A stretch of DNA of 63,971 nucleotides, counting the filler, from Acidimicrobiia bacterium (GTDB taxonomy: Bacteria; Actinomycetota; Acidimicrobiia; Spongiisociales; CAZKJJ01): assembly GCA_046759765.1 (NCBI GenBank). It is 3 parts of 3 records of this genome, joined end to end, with 100 filler letters (N's around TTAATTAATTAA, not from the genome) between each part and the next. Parts side by side here need not be neighbours in the genome. Positions count along the whole stretch, not along the records: positions 58,521 to 63,971 come from JBHICV010000154.1; 2 more parts are not named here. The stretch is one strand, 5' to 3'. The position numbers and the translations under genes were made by a program. Shown here in pieces: positions 54,913 through 63,971 of this stretch. Every line of letters starts with the position of its first letter. The first letter of the stretch is position 1. The notes below the pieces were generated by a model, which worked only from the letters and a program-made list of their open reading frames with translations, was not told the origin of the DNA and searched no databases.

Positions 54913-56318
54913 CTAAGGGTCGGTCCCGGACGCGTCGACGCCCCATGGATCGAAGGGCCACTCCGCGTCGTCTGGTCTGAAGTCGTCGTGGAAGAACTCG
55001 AAGTCAACCGCCCTGGCGAACAGGGTCAGCGAACTATCGGGGTCGTCGCAAACATCGGCAGCGGTCCAGGCCGAACACGGTGCTCGCCACTCCACCCAGA
55101 TGTCGTAGCGACCAGGCGGCAAACCGTCTGGGAACTCGTGGACGAACTCGTCGCACGGGAGGGGTTCCGTCTGCTCACGGAAGCCGGGACCACACGAGTC
55201 GCTGGCCACTCTGACCAGGTAATCGCTGGTGAAGCGGTACGTCTGGTCGAGCTCGAACGGGCCGTCGGCTAGTGGCGGGCCCTGCCTTCTTGTCACGTAG
55301 ACCTCGACATCGAAGTCGGGGGGAATGCCCGAACCGAGTGGAGCCTCTTCGCCGTTGACGAAGCCCTGCCGGATATGGAACGGCTCGTGCGCCAGCCACA
55401 CCCCCGTTATCTCCTCAAGCTCCGGATGCACCATGAAGGTCGAGTACTCCAACGGAAACCCTCCCGGCGTCAGGAACCGCAACCGAGGCGTTGGTGGTGG
55501 CGACTCCAGCACCGGTAGCGGGAGGTTGCGTTGGTCGGCGTGGATGTAGCTGCCGGCGGGCGCAGCAGGGCTCTGGAGTCTGCCGGAGAAATCGAGCACC
55601 TGGCGAGCGAACTGAGTGGCCGCTGCTTCGCTCTGTTGAGCCGCTGTCCACCCGCGTAGATGGCGGCTCCGATAGCGACCACCGCCAACAGAAGGAGAAC
55701 GATCCCTGCGGCCCAAGCCGTTCGGATCGTGCGGCGGTGCTGGGTCACCTCCTCTGACTCCAACTCGTCCTTAGCGACACCACGGATCGCCGAGGCGATG
55801 TCGGCGACCCCCGCCCGAAACGAGGCGTTGTTCAGGCCGAGCTGGTGCTCACTGCGGGCAAACCGGAAGTCCACCCAGCGGGGCTCAGCGGAAAACGCAC
55901 CGTGTAAGGCGGGTGGCGCAGTATCGGAGACGATATCGTCGTCAGCCCAGGAGAACTCGCCTTCGGTGAGGACCGGGATGATCCGCTCCGGATCCTTGTG
56001 CTCGAGCCAGTACTCGACCTCCCGGTTCACCCACTCCGATTGAGCAGCATCACGCGAAAGCAGCAGCACAAACCAGCCCGACTGGTCTAACGCCTTGGTG
56101 ATCGATGACCACAGATGCGGATTCGCCGACAGCGAGGCTTCGTCCCGGAAAATGCGTAAGGCCCGGCGTTTCCACCACGGCTTCGCGAACCGCTGCAACC
56201 CCGCCTGCAGACGTGGCGCCAGCAGATCACCGGCGGCATGGCTGTAGGACATGAAGCCGTCATAGACGACCCCTACCGGTGACTCGGGAGCCTGCCGTCG
56301 CTCCTCGGCCGTGTCCAT
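54913..56318 (-). pseudogene. TIR-domain / transmembrane / ectodomain protein, frameshifted near 55640
   Basis: TIR motifs YDGFMSYSH, IFRD, SEWVNREVEYW, then a TM helix. The coding-like frame switches right after the TM (…GGQR to AQQSEAAATQFARQ…) and runs to TAG at 54913-54915. Confidence 0.75.
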
Positions 56319-58420: not shown

Positions 58421-58520
58421 NNNNNNNNNNNNNNNNNNNNNNNNNNNNNNNNNNNNNNNNNNNNTTAATTAATTAANNNNNNNNNNNNNNNNNNNNNNNN
58501 NNNNNNNNNNNNNNNNNNNN
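58421..58520. other. Artificial contig linker
   Basis: N-run containing TTAATTAATTAA. Confidence 0.97.
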
Positions 58521-58852
58521 AAGCGGACCGCCGACGAGTGGAACGGGTGCAGACCGGTGGCCTCCATCCGGAGCGCCAGCATCGCGACGACCACCTTCTG
58601 CAGCTCACCCTGGAACCAATCGCCCCGCAAGGTCATCACCCCGTCTGCGTAGTTGATCGTTTTCTCGGTCGCATCGCGATCCCAAACGACGTCCGGCGCC
58701 GGCAGCGTCACCGTGGAGCTGATGTCCACCGCGGCCAACCGATAGTCGAGGAAGGTCGTGTCGGCGAGGGCCGCATCCACCGGCACACTGCTGTATACGT
58801 CGACGCGGATCCGTCCGGTTCCGGCGGTCATCTCTTGCGACAGCTGCAGCAT
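58521..58852 (-). CDS. Hypothetical protein, 3'-truncated; possibly an HprK-related P-loop kinase
   Basis: GAAAGGA RBS; ends GLHPFHSSAVR at the gap, similar to the H-[AS]-S-A-V segment that precedes Walker A in HprK-like kinases. Confidence 0.6.
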
Positions 58853-58891
58853 CAGGTTCCTTTCAGCCGAACGACTAGGCGCGCCGCGCGT

Positions 58892-59854
58892 TCATGTCGT
58901 GATCGGCCGTGACTGGAGCAGAAAGACCTCGTCTCCCTCGATCGCCCACTCCACGTCCTGGGGAGTGCCGAAGACGTCCTCGAGCAGCCGACCCAGCTCC
59001 GCGAGGCGAACCAACTCCTCCTCGGATAGCACCGGACGAGAGGCCTTCGCCGGGTCCACCGGAACCTCCTCAGTTCCGCCGTCCAAGGAAAGGACAATCT
59101 CAACTTTCTGTTCGGCGACGTGCCGCCGCTTCAATCGTCCATCACGCTTGATGATGTAGTGGTCGGGAATGACCCGGCCGGAGACGACGCCTTCACCAAG
59201 GCCCCAGGCGCCCTCCACCACCATCTGGTCGCGCCGCTGGCGGATCGGGTCTGTGGTGAACAGCACTCCGGCCTTATCCGGGTTCAGGAGGCGTTGGACG
59301 ACCACGGCCATGCCGAGGTCGTCGAGGGAGCTCTTGAGACGACGGTAGAAGAGTGCCCGCTCGGCGAAGAACGATCCCCAGCAGTCACCGACGCGGGCCA
59401 CAACCTGGTCGGATCCGCGCACGTTGAGGTAGGTCTCCTGCTGTCCTGCGAAGCTGGCGGCTTCGGCGTCCTCGGCACACGCGCTCGATCTCACCGCAAC
59501 CGGGGCTCCGGAGAACTGCTCGTAGGCGGCGCGGATCTGGTCGGCGATCTCCCCGCGGGGTGGGGATTCATGCACGATCGTCTGAAGTTCGGGCGCGATC
59601 GAAGCTGCGGCTGTGTCCGAATCGATCTTTCCGAGCAGGTCCCGAACCTGGGACTCCGATCCCCAGTCTCGGAGCGCAACCTCAAGCGCGTCGGCACGCA
59701 CGACAAAGCCAGGGGGGACGGGCAGGCCCCGCTTGGCCATCATCGCCAGATTCGCTCCCTTGCCTCCCGCGATCTCAGTGAGGCCGCAGTCGGGATCCTC
59801 GAACCAGAAGACCCATGGTCCGTTCTGGGCCGACGCTCCCGTCGAAGTGGTCAT
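58892..59854 (-). CDS. Stand-alone PEP-synthase/PPDK N-terminal ATP-grasp subunit
   Basis: GGKGANL, VPPGF, VAVRSSA, SFAGQQETYLN, WGLGEGVVSG, DVEWA and LQSRPIT motifs. Confidence 0.93.
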   Translation of the reverse strand: MTTSTGASAQNGPWVFWFEDPDCGLTEIAGGKGANLAMMAKRGLPVPPGFVVRADALEVALRDWGSESQVRDLLGKIDSDTAAASIAPELQTIVHESPPRGEIADQIRAAYEQFSGAPVAVRSSACAEDAEAASFAGQQETYLNVRGSDQVVARVGDCWGSFFAERALFYRRLKSSLDDLGMAVVVQRLLNPDKAGVLFTTDPIRQRRDQMVVEGAWGLGEGVVSGRVIPDHYIIKRDGRLKRRHVAEQKVEIVLSLDGGTEEVPVDPAKASRPVLSEEELVRLAELGRLLEDVFGTPQDVEWAIEGDEVFLLQSRPITT

Positions 59855-60555
59855 TCGATGGCGTCCCGCTCCGTCCGCTCATCCGCGGCGGCCAGTCGAC
59901 CCCTGATCTCAGCCGCCTCGTCGAGATGCTGGCGCATCGCGGACGACGCCGCCTCCGGATCGTGGGCCTTCAGGGCGTCGAGGATTTCGACGTGCCGTTT
60001 GGCAAGCCACGTGAGATCGACCCCTGGCACCGTGGTCGTCAGATAGGTCTGACTGAAGGGCTCGAGGAGCTTCCAGGTCCTCTCCAGCGTCTCGTGTCCG
60101 GCGGCACTGACGACCGTCGCATGGAACTCCGCGTTCTTGTGCGTCTGCTCCGGCGCATTGCCGCTCGCGGCGCAGTCGAGCATCTCTTCGAGGAGTAGCT
60201 CGAGCTTTTCGAGGTGTTCGTCCGAGATCTTGAGGGCGGCTTGCTCGGCGGCGAAGGCCTCCAGCACACCGCGCACTTGCACCGCTTCGACCAGTTCTTC
60301 TCGGCTCGGCTTGCGAACCGACGCACCGCGGTGTGGACGCATCTCGACAAGGCCGAGACTGGCGAGCGACCGCAGGGCCTCGCGCACCGGTGCCTGGCTG
60401 ATCCCGAATTCACGGGCAACCCGGGTCTCGACGATGCGAGACCCGGGTTCTAGGTCACCTTCCACGATGCGCTTGAGCAGGCGGTCCTTCACCTGCTCAC
60501 TGAGCACGCTGCGTTCGACGAGCTGCTCGGGAGCGTTCGTGGAATGGGTGGTCAT
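59851..60555 (-). CDS. GntR family regulator (FCD domain)
   Basis: HTH LSEQV...FGISQAPVREAL; NAEFH, H..I and MRQHL FCD motifs. Confidence 0.93.
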   Translation of the reverse strand: MTTHSTNAPEQLVERSVLSEQVKDRLLKRIVEGDLEPGSRIVETRVAREFGISQAPVREALRSLASLGLVEMRPHRGASVRKPSREELVEAVQVRGVLEAFAAEQAALKISDEHLEKLELLLEEMLDCAASGNAPEQTHKNAEFHATVVSAAGHETLERTWKLLEPFSQTYLTTTVPGVDLTWLAKRHVEILDALKAHDPEAASSAMRQHLDEAAEIRGRLAAADERTERDAIE

Positions 60556-62351
60556 CAGGCGAGCAGATCCGATTCCGGCTGCTCGCGCTCCTGATAGTCG
60601 TCGGCGAGGATCTCGACGATCCCGGTCGAGCCGTTGACACGGACTTGGTTACCCGTCCTGATCTTGCTCGTGGCCACCGAGGTACCGATCACCGCCGGAA
60701 TCCCGAACTCGCGGGAGAGCACCGCCGGGTGCGATACCGTGCCGCCGGCATCGGTGACGAGACCGCTGATCTTCGTGAACAGCACCACCCAGGCGGGGTT
60801 CGTCATCTGGCATACCAGGATGTCGCCCTTTTCGACCTGATCGAATTCGTCGATGGACAAGACGACCTTGGCGGTGCCCTGGATGACTCCCGGAGAGCCA
60901 GCCAGGCCGGCGATCTGATCCTCCGCCTCGGGCTGCTCGATGTAGAGCTTGTCGGGGAACCCCCACAGTCCCAGGTACGGGAAGTCGAGATGCGCCTGGG
61001 TTGCCGTTCCGATCCAGTCCCGTGGACGGATCTCGTACGACGCTTCTCGTTCGTCCTTCCGTTCCGAGATGATGCTCCGGGCATCGAAGCCCTCCGGATC
61101 CGCCATGAACACCCTCAGCTCGTTGTACTTGAGGAACACAACGTCGTCCGGATCGTCGAGCGCACCCATCTCCACCAGCTTCCGCCCGATGCAGATGAGA
61201 ACCAGGCGCAAGTGCGCGTTGGTCCCCTGGTCGATGTAGAAGTGATGGTCGGGCGTCAGCGGAGCCATCTTCAGGTTGTATCCGTTGGCGACCTGCATCT
61301 TCTCCAGCGCCTCGCCCTCGAGGCCCTCGACTAGCTCCTAGCTGGCGGCGCCGATGTCGTCGGCCAGCCTGGCCACCGTGGAGGGGTAGTCGTAGTCAGT
61401 CTCGAGATAGCCCTTCACGAGCTCGAGTACCGGCGCTGCCTCCTCGAACCTGGTCGGGAAGGCGAACTCATGGCTCCACACTGCATGCCAGCCGAACTCT
61501 CGCTGGTACGGCTTCACCCGGTCCTCCATGAACTGACGCCCGCCCTCCGAGTCCTTCAGGGCCACGAGCACGTCGGTGCCGGTCTCCCGGTCGAAGAGCT
61601 TCGACAGCTCGGGGTCGCTCTTGACCTCCTCCTTCATCTTCCACAACGCCTCGATCGAGTCCCAGTTGCGGTCCTCGGCCGAGTTCTGCAACCGTCCGAG
61701 CAGCTCCTCGTCAACCTCGCCGCGGGTCTCTTCCGATACCGCACGCAAGTTGAGCGTGGCAGAAAGCTGGGAGAAGTTGAGCATCCAGTGGATCTTCCAG
61801 TGCCGATCGTGGATGTCCATCGCGTCCTCCAGAATGGTTGCCCACTCCATGAGGCTGATCTCCTCCCACCGGTCGATCTTGTCTTCCAGGTAGTCGAAGT
61901 TCCGGCGCATCTCCGGCACGAGTCGATCCCTCCACCAATCGGCGAAGTGCTCGCCGTAGGTGGGCAGCACCGCACCCAGGTAGGTGTTGATCTTGGAGGC
62001 ATACTCCGGATCGTCAATCGGAACGCGCGCCGCGTAGCGGTTGGCGTACTCCATGCCGTCCACCTGTGACGACGGATCCGCCGGCACCGCCGCGGTGTAG
62101 AGGTAGCCGTTGACGTTCTTCGCCAGCCAATCCGAGGCGAACGGCGTGCCGAAGCGCCGGAACATGTGGTCACACGTCAGCCACCAACCGCCGATGTCGA
62201 AGTACATCGGGGAGAGCGGCTGAGGGCAGTGCAGGTCGTCGTAGACCCAGAACAAGCCCTTCTCGGCCTCGGAGTCCCACTCAACGGGAAAGCTCTCGTC
62301 GCCGAGGAACTGCTTGATGATCTCGTTGGTGTCATCGCTCACAGATTCCAT
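60555..62351 (-). pseudogene. PEP-utilizing enzyme (substrate-binding plus His-swivel domains, PpsA/Rph-like) interrupted by an in-frame TAG at 61338-61340
   Basis: One continuous 598-codon frame: FWVYDDLHCPQPLSP ... IGAAS*ELVEGL ... TPDHHFYID ... GGTVSHPAVLSREFGIPAV; AAGGAGG RBS. Confidence 0.85.
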
Positions 62352-62548
62352 CCTCCTTCTCTGACTGGTCTTACTTTCGACGCAGGCTTCGATTGGCCGC
62401 GATCTTCCTGAGTCGGCCCAAGTCGGTCCTTGTACTTGGCGGGGACCTGAGGTTCGCGATCTTCATGACCCCGAAGATGAGGCTGACGTTTCAGAGTCGC
62501 AGTGAGAAATCGCATCATCCAGAGCTACCTCTCAGCCGACCATCATAG

Positions 62549-62567
62549 ATAGTCGATAATCGACGAT
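62549..62567. promoter_or_regulatory. Putative GntR operator
   Basis: Palindrome ATAGTCGAT-A-ATCGACGAT in the AT-rich promoter region of the GntR-containing operon. Confidence 0.6.
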
Positions 62568-62624
62568 ACGTAGGTGTTCACTCCCGCGTCAACTCGGAAA
62601 ACAGACGGAACGATGGCGACCGGC

Positions 62625-63716
62625 TCAGGAGGCGAGCAGGGTCTCCGCGACGGCACTCCCGACCTCTGCGGTGGTGCTCGTTCCTCCGATATCTCTCGTC
62701 CGGGCTTCTCCAGCGGCAAGGGTTGCGGCAACCGCCTGCTCGACTCCCGCCGCAGCCTCCACCTCTCCCAGGTGCTCGAGCATCATCCGGGTCGCCTCGA
62801 TCGAAGCGATCGGGTTCACCCGGCTCTGGCCGGCGTACTTCGGCGCCGAGCCATGGATGGGCTCGAACATCGACGGAAACACTCGCTCGGGGTTTATGTT
62901 GCCGCCGGCGGCGAAGCCCATCCCGCCCTGCAACATCGCCCCGAGGTCCGTGATGATGTCGCCGAAGAGGTTCGAGGCCACGACGACGTCGAAGTAGTCC
63001 GGGTTCTTCACGAACCACATCGTGAGGGCGTCGACGAGAGCAACATCTGTCTCAACTTCGGGGTAATCCGCGGCGACCCTGTCGAACACGGCATCCCAGA
63101 AGACCATCGAGTAGTTCAGGGCATTCGACTTCGTGCAGTTGGTGACCCGTCCTACGACCTCGCCGGTGCCGAGCTTGGCGCGGGCCCGGGCCAGGTCGAA
63201 GGCGAACCGCATCACCCGCTCGCACCCCTTACGGGTGAACACCCCGGTCTGCAGGGCGAACGCGTCTGTCGTGCCCTCCTTGAAGATCCCCCCAAGGCCC
63301 GAGTACTCACCCTCGGTGTTCTCCCGAACGACGAGGATGTCGAGCGTCTCTGGGGTCGCCGTCGTCACCGGCGTCGGAACACCGGGATACAGCTTGATGG
63401 GCCGGATGTTGGCGTACTGGTCGAAGCCCTGCCGGATCCGGAGCAGCATCTGCAGCGAGATGTGGTCCGGGACCTTGGCCGCATCACCGATGCAGCCGAG
63501 GAAGATCGCGTCGTAAGGACGCAGCGTGTCGAGCGCGTCGTCGGGCATCATCTCTCCGCGCTTGAGATAGCGGTCGCAACTCCAGTCGAAGGCGTCAAAT
63601 TCGACGCCGAATCCGTACTTGGCCGCCGCGGCGTCGGCGATTCGCGTTGCTTCCGCGGCGACCTCTGGTCCCACCCCGTCGCCGGGGATCATGGCGACTC
63701 GATACTCGTTCATCAC
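62625..63716 (-). CDS. Tartrate/D-malate/isopropylmalate dehydrogenase family protein
   Basis: PGDGVGPEV, RQGFDQYANIRP, RENTEGEY, TKSN, NLFGDI and FEPIHGSAP motifs. Confidence 0.92.
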   Translation of the reverse strand: MMNEYRVAMIPGDGVGPEVAAEATRIADAAAAKYGFGVEFDAFDWSCDRYLKRGEMMPDDALDTLRPYDAIFLGCIGDAAKVPDHISLQMLLRIRQGFDQYANIRPIKLYPGVPTPVTTATPETLDILVVRENTEGEYSGLGGIFKEGTTDAFALQTGVFTRKGCERVMRFAFDLARARAKLGTGEVVGRVTNCTKSNALNYSMVFWDAVFDRVAADYPEVETDVALVDALTMWFVKNPDYFDVVVASNLFGDIITDLGAMLQGGMGFAAGGNINPERVFPSMFEPIHGSAPKYAGQSRVNPIASIEATRMMLEHLGEVEAAAGVEQAVAATLAAGEARTRDIGGTSTTAEVGSAVAETLLAS

Positions 63717-63935
63717 TCGTTCTTCGTCCTGCGGATCCGCCAGCGAGGCGGCCCCGCGTCGACACTACCCACCACAGTGGGTGCGTCGATCCAGCGTCAT
63801 AGGTGCTGCTACAGCGTCGTCGGCGTTCATGGGCAGGTCCCCAGGATGTCAGCCGGGTGAGCCCCTCCACAACTTCGACCTGCCGATGGTCACGCTGCGA
63901 TAATCGATTCCGGTCCCCGGCAGCGAGGAGAGGGC

Positions 63936-63971
63936 GTGAGCCAGCTGGACATCTACGGCCTCGACGGCCTC
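63936..63971 (+). CDS. Start of a gene truncated by the window end; N-terminus loosely resembles CofE
   Basis: GAGGAG RBS, then GTG and SQLDIYGLDGL; only 12 codons are visible. Confidence 0.35.
   Translation, partial: MSQLDIYGLDGL

Follow-up and report, generated by a model that had tools for sequence, protein, structure and literature searches.

What is the role of a split dikinase operon at one end of a 63,971-nucleotide stretch of DNA from an Acidimicrobiia bacterium (assembly GCA_046759765.1, 92% complete), and is it an undescribed system, as the original prediction supposed? The stretch, referred to here as the window, is composed of three unrelated contigs (C14, C15 and C154), the last of which takes up bases 58522-63971 entire and carries the operon: two dikinase subunits, A and B, a GntR regulator, and a gene designated here D. 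We found that this operon is a second, stop-interrupted copy of a widespread degradation cluster. We consider it rather probable that it represents the entry module of an oxygen-independent catabolic pathway in which a substrate is phosphorylated, oxidised and dephosphorylated. The overall design is known in outline, though this does not extend to D or the substrate. To call the system undescribed was thus too strong: two-component dikinases of the PpsAB, CreHI, HpeHI and AcvAB types form a described subfamily (PMC12167813), and a dikinase pair that is required along with a molybdenum (Mo) hydroxylase has been published for 3-hydroxypyridine (bioRxiv 10.1101/2020.01.08.898148), as far as the accessible parts of these sources go.

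Subunits A and B and Their Place among Known Dikinases

All parts of the predicted operon were present on the minus strand, in the order A-GntR-B-D, with stop/start overlaps at A/GntR (TGATG) and GntR/B (ATGA). Subunit A (60555..62351, minus strand; 598 codons, interrupted) combines an RPH-like substrate-binding domain with a C-terminal phospho-His swivel; it matches Pfam PEP-utilizers and holds FWVYDDLHCPQPLSP and TDAGGTVSHPAVLSRE (His541). Its swivel motif, TDAGGTVSH, fits the T/SxxGGxxxH pattern around the catalytic His, as defined in PMC12167813. The model of an intact paralogue of A (mean pLDDT 63) matched RPH (5FBT, E 1e-13, 561 columns), which was its sole structure match with E < 0.001. 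Subunit B (58892..59854, minus strand; 320 aa) is a stand-alone PEP-synthase-type ATP-grasp protein (Pfam PPDK_N, E 1e-86), separate from A and adjacent to it. As predicted, there is no pyruvate-binding TIM barrel. B is 50% identical to its Thermomicrobium roseum counterpart and 34-37% identical to PpsB/CreI/HpeI-type proteins.

The split architecture, the T/SxxGGxxxH swivel motif, the PEP-synthase-type ATP-grasp without a TIM barrel, and a pathway dephosphorylation step are shared with PpsAB (Thauera), CreHI (Corynebacterium), HpeHI (Rhodococcus) and AcvAB (Sphingobium). In the available parts of the respective papers, HpeD is a phosphatase at the end of its pathway (PMC9618137), creD is listed as a phosphohydrolase (PMC7764795), and the reason why aromatic catabolism begins with phosphorylation is called unclear (PMC12167813). 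However, the partner of A is a Mo or AOR oxidoreductase, and theirs is a carboxylase or a P450; moreover, most clade-1 relatives of A (defined below) use a truncated PPDK as the phosphate donor, and A falls in a separate clade. The comparison with PpsA, Rph and PigC that had been proposed with the prediction placed A with no characterised enzyme: in a 30-row IQ-TREE phylogeny, the A family formed one 100/100 clade, apart from the PpsA/CreH/HpeH-type 100/100 clade, RPH and PigC, and a 108-row FastTree phylogeny agreed with this separation. A was 24-29% identical to PpsA-, CreH- and HpeH-type stand-ins, taken from annotated plasmids and picked by their annotated gene neighbours, whereas the stand-ins were 43-45% identical among themselves. 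An intact homologue of A reached at most 187 bits on PRK08296-type phenolic kinase models (cut-offs 578-730), and A, which has no fused ATP-grasp, was below the RPH and PigC model cut-offs. RPH and PigC share with A the substrate-domain fold and the His swivel (5FBT, E 1e-13), but they are single fused proteins and distant in the tree, and the A locus has no resistance or biosynthetic context. By its sequence, A represents a distinct branch of two-component small-molecule dikinases. Our literature search, with subscription journals mostly outside its reach, found no paper on this branch.

The family is large. When 8000 candidates were scored, 4471 of them matched A, the best 120 at 69-90% identity. 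A scan of species genomes gave at least 575 stretches, and 80 of these were retained; 217 columns were near-invariant in 202 sequences. Of 40 genomes sampled from the order, 9 contained A, and most of its nearest relatives were in genomes with Acidimicrobiia or Actinomycetota in their titles. Homologues were also present in Moorella, an anaerobe. Two sets of loci, with flanks of up to 10 kb, were compared: clade 1, with 81 loci around A, 41 of them well flanked (at least 7.5 kb on both sides), and a sister clade of 81 loci, approximately 44-52% identical to A, which includes T. roseum and Moorella. T. roseum has an intact pair, WP_012642537.1 with WP_012642554.1, and the HD gene WP_012642976.1; in Moorella, WP_025773113.1 pairs with its neighbour. 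Many of these loci are close kin (about 12 loci with an HD gene are Thermomicrobium-like), so the counts given below are not counts of independent events.

Other dikinase arrangements were noticed. Plasmids of Diaphorobacter and Mycobacterium avium carry unrelated A-type subunits with two neighbours, a truncated PPDK and a gene of 200 aa (L172:8143-12027; L174:4496-9861); in Diaphorobacter, the latter shares 34% identity with the C-terminal domain of the PPDK donor in this system. A split dikinase 25% identical to A follows a non-ribosomal peptide synthetase gene on a Bacillus thuringiensis plasmid (L090:58-9557), suggesting a biosynthetic use of another branch.

A Molybdenum Enzyme Is the Conserved Partner of A

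The neighbourhood of relatives, beyond the point that corresponds to the end of C154, held the defining partner of the system, a Mo hydroxylase: FAD, iron-sulfur (FeS) and Mo subunits of the xanthine-dehydrogenase type lay within 10 kb of A in all 41 well-flanked clade-1 loci. Relatives with the gene order of the window run on as B-D-FAD-FeS-Mo-cyclase-ADH (G029; G008). In the sister clade, the Mo type was found in 37/81 loci, the AOR type in 10/81, and both in none; an AOR-family gene lay directly after A, with no Mo trimer seen, in L102, L103, L121, L127, L131, L139, L140, L163, L168 and L170. The best PDB match of the Mo subunit was 4-hydroxybenzoyl-CoA reductase (E 7e-89). A reductase role was set aside, as a representative FAD subunit (287 aa) matched the beta model of this enzyme only in two separate stretches, far below the cut-off. 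The Rieske, P450 and flavin ring-oxygenase families had no match among the 46 representative neighbour proteins scanned, which, like the homologues in anaerobic Moorella, is in line with an oxygen-independent route. The binding protein of the cluster gave no informative structure match.

A precedent for the pairing is the 3hpd cluster of Ensifer adhaerens HP1 (HpdA1-4 with Orf9/Orf10). According to the available part of the preprint (bioRxiv 10.1101/2020.01.08.898148), it has the dikinase pair, a Mo hydroxylase of the XDH family, a GntR regulator and an ABC transporter in common with the system described here; Mo-dependent oxidation of 3-hydroxypyridine does not take place there without the dikinase pair, whose role in that oxidation is left open. 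The orthologous clusters listed in the supplements of that preprint may bear on the overlap with the A family. In contrast, 3hpd contains a maleamate-pathway dioxygenase and an SRPBCC subunit, which are not among the conserved clade-1 neighbours (46 representatives, 10-kb flanks), and neither D nor a donor swap is described in the accessible part of the text. A CoxG-like gene, judged by eye, was seen in 4 sister loci.

Vitamin B6 degradation was also considered because of SDR, metallo-beta-lactamase, GMC and 3-hydroxyacyl-CoA-dehydrogenase-like neighbours. The comparison was built on what is reportedly the degradation pathway of M. loti, and it lent no support: 4-pyridoxolactonase was not among the 36 matches, pyridoxal dehydrogenase was not among the best 60 of 223 matches, and the FHMPC model scored 169 versus 500.

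Exchange of the Phosphate Donor and the Slot of Gene D

The phosphate donor is exchanged between loci. Among the well-flanked clade-1 loci, 33/41 had a truncated PPDK, 7/41 had B, one had neither and none had both; in the sister clade, B was found in 39/81 loci and the PPDK type in 0/81. The C-terminal domain of the truncated-PPDK donor occurred only in genomes with A (6/9) among the 40 relatives, and a representative truncated PPDK passed the PRK05878 model (503 versus 456 bits). VadK, likewise a truncated PPDK with ATP-grasp and His domains and no TIM barrel, is described as a regulatory histidine kinase in the available part of PMC13400623. Unlike VadK, the donor found here is fused to a winged-helix/helical domain of approximately 200 aa and goes together with an A-type subunit, features that suggest a function in donating phosphate and not in signalling.

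Gene D (58521..58852, minus strand) is cut by the contig end, so that only the first 110 of about 295 residues are present, and this part has no Pfam match. The model of D (pLDDT 89) aligned to PEPCK over 250 residues (Z 11.7), and its C-terminal part matched HprK over approximately 122 residues (Z 10.2-10.6), the top structural alignments being at 9-14% identity; D contains the N-terminal part of PEPCK, which is absent from HprK. Its profile matched a PEPCK segment with the P-loop and with what we take to be the metal-site Lys/His (best E 0.003; the metal-site segment corresponds to E. coli PEPCK residues 196-260). D keeps G-x-W-x-x-G-E-x-x-K, H-x-S and the P-loop GESNHGKS, which fits the HprK pattern GxSxxGKS. 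It had no Pfam Hpr_kinase_C match and only a weak PEPCK_ATP match.

D shares its fold and P-loop with PEPCK and HPr kinase, yet it is about 295 aa long and sits in a phosphatase gene slot. In the sister clade, the gene after B was D in 15/81 loci and an HD/DUF4202-like gene in 24/81, never both; D or the HD gene directly followed B on the same strand in all 37 sister loci also showing B. Among the 41 well-flanked clade-1 loci, D was found in 28, and the 13 loci without it had a His-phosphatase (5), a PHP gene (4) or neither (4). In G003, which is without D as well, a His-phosphatase is found next to the donor gene. Among the 40 relatives, D occurred only in genomes with A (7/9). The original prediction of a possible HprK-like kinase has thus to be revised: by its modelled fold, profile match and gene slot, D is better described as PEPCK-like. 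Its mini-PEPCK fold and its position point to a dephosphorylating step, not to an HprK-like regulator, and we regard a dephosphorylating enzyme as the better-founded assignment, held with moderate confidence. That D also recovers ATP through PEPCK-like transfer to ADP is a more tentative suggestion. More speculative still is the proposal that D represents a novel enzyme type, in which a minimal PEPCK fold serves to transfer phosphate from an aryl or enol phosphate to ADP. ATP would thereby be partly recovered in a widespread O2-independent route for a hydroxylated heterocycle, with interchangeable donors (PEP-synthase type or truncated PPDK) and oxidases (Mo or AOR type).

The same data bear on a reading that we consider very unlikely, in which phosphotransfer is regulatory or activating: proteins such as the Mo enzyme, and not the substrate, would be the targets of A, of B or the truncated PPDK, and of an HprK-like D. 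The HprK match of the C-terminal part of D, the PRK05878 match of the truncated PPDK together with the regulatory role described for VadK (PMC13400623), and the lack of a phosphorylated intermediate in the accessible part of the 3-hydroxypyridine study (bioRxiv 10.1101/2020.01.08.898148) would all fit it. However, A retains a large, highly conserved RPH-like small-molecule domain, HD-domain proteins replace D in position, and D has the PEPCK N-terminal part.

Operator, Regulator and Upstream Dehydrogenase

A sigma-70-like promoter, TTGACG-18-TATCGT (62563..62592, minus strand), and a palindromic operator, TCGAT-N-ATCGA (TCGATNATCGA, 62553..62563), precede A. Both are retained in the paralogue, where TTGACG-18-TATCAT occupies the same place as the promoter. 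An exact copy of the palindrome was found within 400 bp upstream of A in 34/78 loci, and 106 copies were present in 1.31 Mb of loci, compared with 11 expected under a Markov-4 model; clearly, the motif is not due to chance. It is likely to be the site of the GntR/FCD (FadR-type) regulator (59851..60555, minus strand; 234 aa; Pfam GntR + FCD). The regulator was found in 32/41 well-flanked loci; regulator and palindrome occurred together in 28/41, neither in 5/41, and one without the other in 8/41. The view of the locus as an uncharacterised, ligand-inducible phosphorylation pathway is supported to the extent that the system appears repressor-controlled and its gene set is conserved.

The tartrate/malate-type dehydrogenase that had been predicted upstream on the same strand was present at 63716-62625. 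It encodes a tartrate/D-malate-dehydrogenase-like beta-decarboxylating enzyme of 363 aa (62625..63716, minus strand; Pfam Iso_dh), which scored 461.2 bits on TIGR02089 relative to a curated cut-off of 470.4. It is 83% identical to the copy upstream of the paralogous A in the same genome, and homologues at 70-74% identity adjoin the system in L010, L011 and G003. It is an occasional accessory (3/81 loci) and is probably transcribed separately, with the promoter-like site lying between it and A.

Proposed Pathway and Its Substrate

In the pathway that we favour, GntR would stay bound to TCGATNATCGA at the promoter and come off when a ligand from the pathway is present. B would bind ATP and load a phosphate onto His541 of A, releasing AMP and Pi, and A would transfer the phosphate to a small substrate, probably a heteroaromatic one, at an acidic hydroxyl of the phenol or enol type; this chemistry is modelled on that of HpeHI, PpsAB and RPH, the domains and motifs of which are found in A and B. 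The xanthine-dehydrogenase-type Mo enzyme, the linkage of which to A was observed directly, would then oxidise the phosphorylated compound with water, the phosphate serving to trap the compound and to mask an electron-donating hydroxyl. D would then act as the dephosphorylating enzyme; the phosphate would most likely pass to ADP in the manner of PEPCK, with one ATP being regained. Breakdown would be finished by cyclase-family and metallo-beta-lactamase hydrolases, dehydrogenases, transaldolase/transketolase-like enzymes, MMSDH and D-malate-type enzymes. LarA-family genes were present in 5/81 sister loci, one of them above the malate-racemase cut-off, and together with the dehydrogenase they may point to a D-malate-like end product.

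A number of observations weigh against this scheme. No phosphorylated intermediate was detected in the Ensifer study, according to its available part (bioRxiv 10.1101/2020.01.08.898148), and none of the accessory proteins tested was clearly orthologous to an enzyme from a known pathway. As regards D, it has STET(T) at the place of the acidic DD pair that follows the P-loop in HprK and PEPCK, and the Lys resembling that of PEPCK is variable among sister-clade members. The exclusion between D and phosphatases is imperfect: D and PHP occurred together in 2 loci, neither D nor a His-phosphatase or PHP gene was present in 4/41, and D accompanied another putative HD protein in 3/36 longer sister loci. 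The donor exchange does not extend to whole genomes, as G000 and G008 hold both donor types and G017 shows neither. Moreover, the swap of the Mo enzyme for AOR and the transaldolase, transketolase, GAPDH-II, PGK and LarA neighbours fit a sugar-like aldehyde as well.

According to this last possibility, which we regard as rather unlikely, the substrate would be a non-aromatic, sugar-like or enediol compound, the phospho-aldehyde of which is oxidised to an acid by the Mo/AOR enzyme, with the products entering pentose-phosphate and C4-hydroxyacid metabolism. The mutual exclusion of the Mo (37) and AOR (10) types among the 81 sister loci is in line with that, as are transaldolase-like genes in 22/41 and transketolase in 9/41 well-flanked loci, and the sugar ABC transporters with Gfo/Idh and IolE-like genes at some loci. 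A Moorella-type cluster (L092:15792-21671) encodes a type II GAPDH, a PGK-like protein, a LarAH6 malate racemase above cut-off, and PDH-like E1/E2. However, these sugar-type genes are patchy, and cyclase-family amidohydrolases, found in 15/41 and 31/81 loci, suggest an amide or ring-cleavage product. In addition, the characterised split dikinases (PMC12167813) and MarK, the UPF0261 member described as a second phenol-kinase family (PMC12624787), act on aromatic hydroxyls in the accessible parts of these papers. UPF0261 (MarK-like kinase) genes occurred in 8/81 and 15/81 loci; they and PEP-hydrolase-like genes recur in the cluster, e.g., at L086:12490-14593. Along with the Ensifer precedent, these points speak for a hydroxy-(hetero)aromatic substrate.

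The Window Copy and the Sister Cluster in the Same Genome

Codon 338 of A is an in-frame TAG (61338..61340, minus strand, i.e., read from 61340 to 61338). It splits the gene into open reading frames of 337 and 247 aa and is the sole lesion found in A. The alignment column that contains it is variable, and no stop codon was found there in any of the 81 clade-1 loci. Between this copy and the paralogue, synonymous divergence (dS) was approximately 0.9-1.2 and dN/dS was approximately 0.1 in all four genes compared; within A, dN/dS was 0.09 before and 0.11 after the TAG. The low values on both sides indicate that the stop is either recent or an error. The window copy is thus a recently inactivated or mis-assembled duplicate, and it is broken as assembled.

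We think it unlikely that the copy is functional, the TAG being a sequencing or assembly error or being read through, even though this is its only lesion, dN/dS is approximately 0.1 on both sides of the stop as well as in GntR, D and the dehydrogenase, and the matching contig pieces in the best sequencing run were of low depth (about 3-8). An intact paralogue exists, which makes this copy dispensable, and A also carries stops, at other positions, in 4/81 sister loci and in G003. Neither a PylS above cut-off nor a tRNA with a CTA anticodon was found in the 92%-complete assembly; with the variable column and the lack of a conserved stop, this led us to reject programmed read-through. Re-initiation at the ATG at 61298 was rejected as well, there being no Shine-Dalgarno-like site at a usable distance. 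C154 ranked 38/50 in tetranucleotide distance and was typical in GC content, and its co-binning from a relative is possible. Other decaying copies of A, with stops at other positions, were seen in L110, L111, L123, L124 and G003:C135; L110 and L111 have frameshifts in D and LarA too.

An intact second A, 86% identical to that of the window, lies on C58 and is followed by GntR and D, without B; the window D is 81% identical to this full-length D. A Mo trimer is located on C116, and a 708-aa truncated PPDK on C150. The cyclase gene stops at residue 160 on C116 and restarts at residue 181 on C58, by which the three contigs probably belong to one cluster, although no end overlaps joining C116, C58 and C150 were found. 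The content of this sister cluster (L085, L001 and L004 for C116, C58 and C150, respectively) is probably complete: the Mo trimer, cyclase, ADH, MFS, metallo-beta-lactamase, SDR, transketolase, cupin, dehydrogenase, intact A, GntR, D, ABC transporter and truncated PPDK. From its gene content, the sister cluster would be the working version in this genome, with the truncated PPDK as the donor and no B. A fused 871-aa RPH-like dikinase is encoded elsewhere in the genome (G000:C9:22259-24874, in L002).

The left end of the operon is an artificial join (window 58421-58520; TTAATTAATTAA, flanked by N runs), and not a contig break beyond which further genes could be sought, as the original prediction had proposed: those left of the N run come from another contig. 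They include an ORF with a TIR_2 domain that seemingly ends early (55470-56318, minus strand) and a class III nucleotide cyclase that is truncated where the contig ends (57483-58421, minus strand), both of which are unrelated to the dikinase operon.

Taken together, the A family ties a dikinase and a Mo enzyme together in aerobes and strict anaerobes alike. Specific hypotheses follow from the module swaps: truncated PPDKs may act as donors, and a PEPCK-like family that has no name may be assigned a function. The window copy itself is a poor experimental subject, but the cultured carriers T. roseum DSM 5159 and Moorella thermoacetica Y72 make these hypotheses directly testable.

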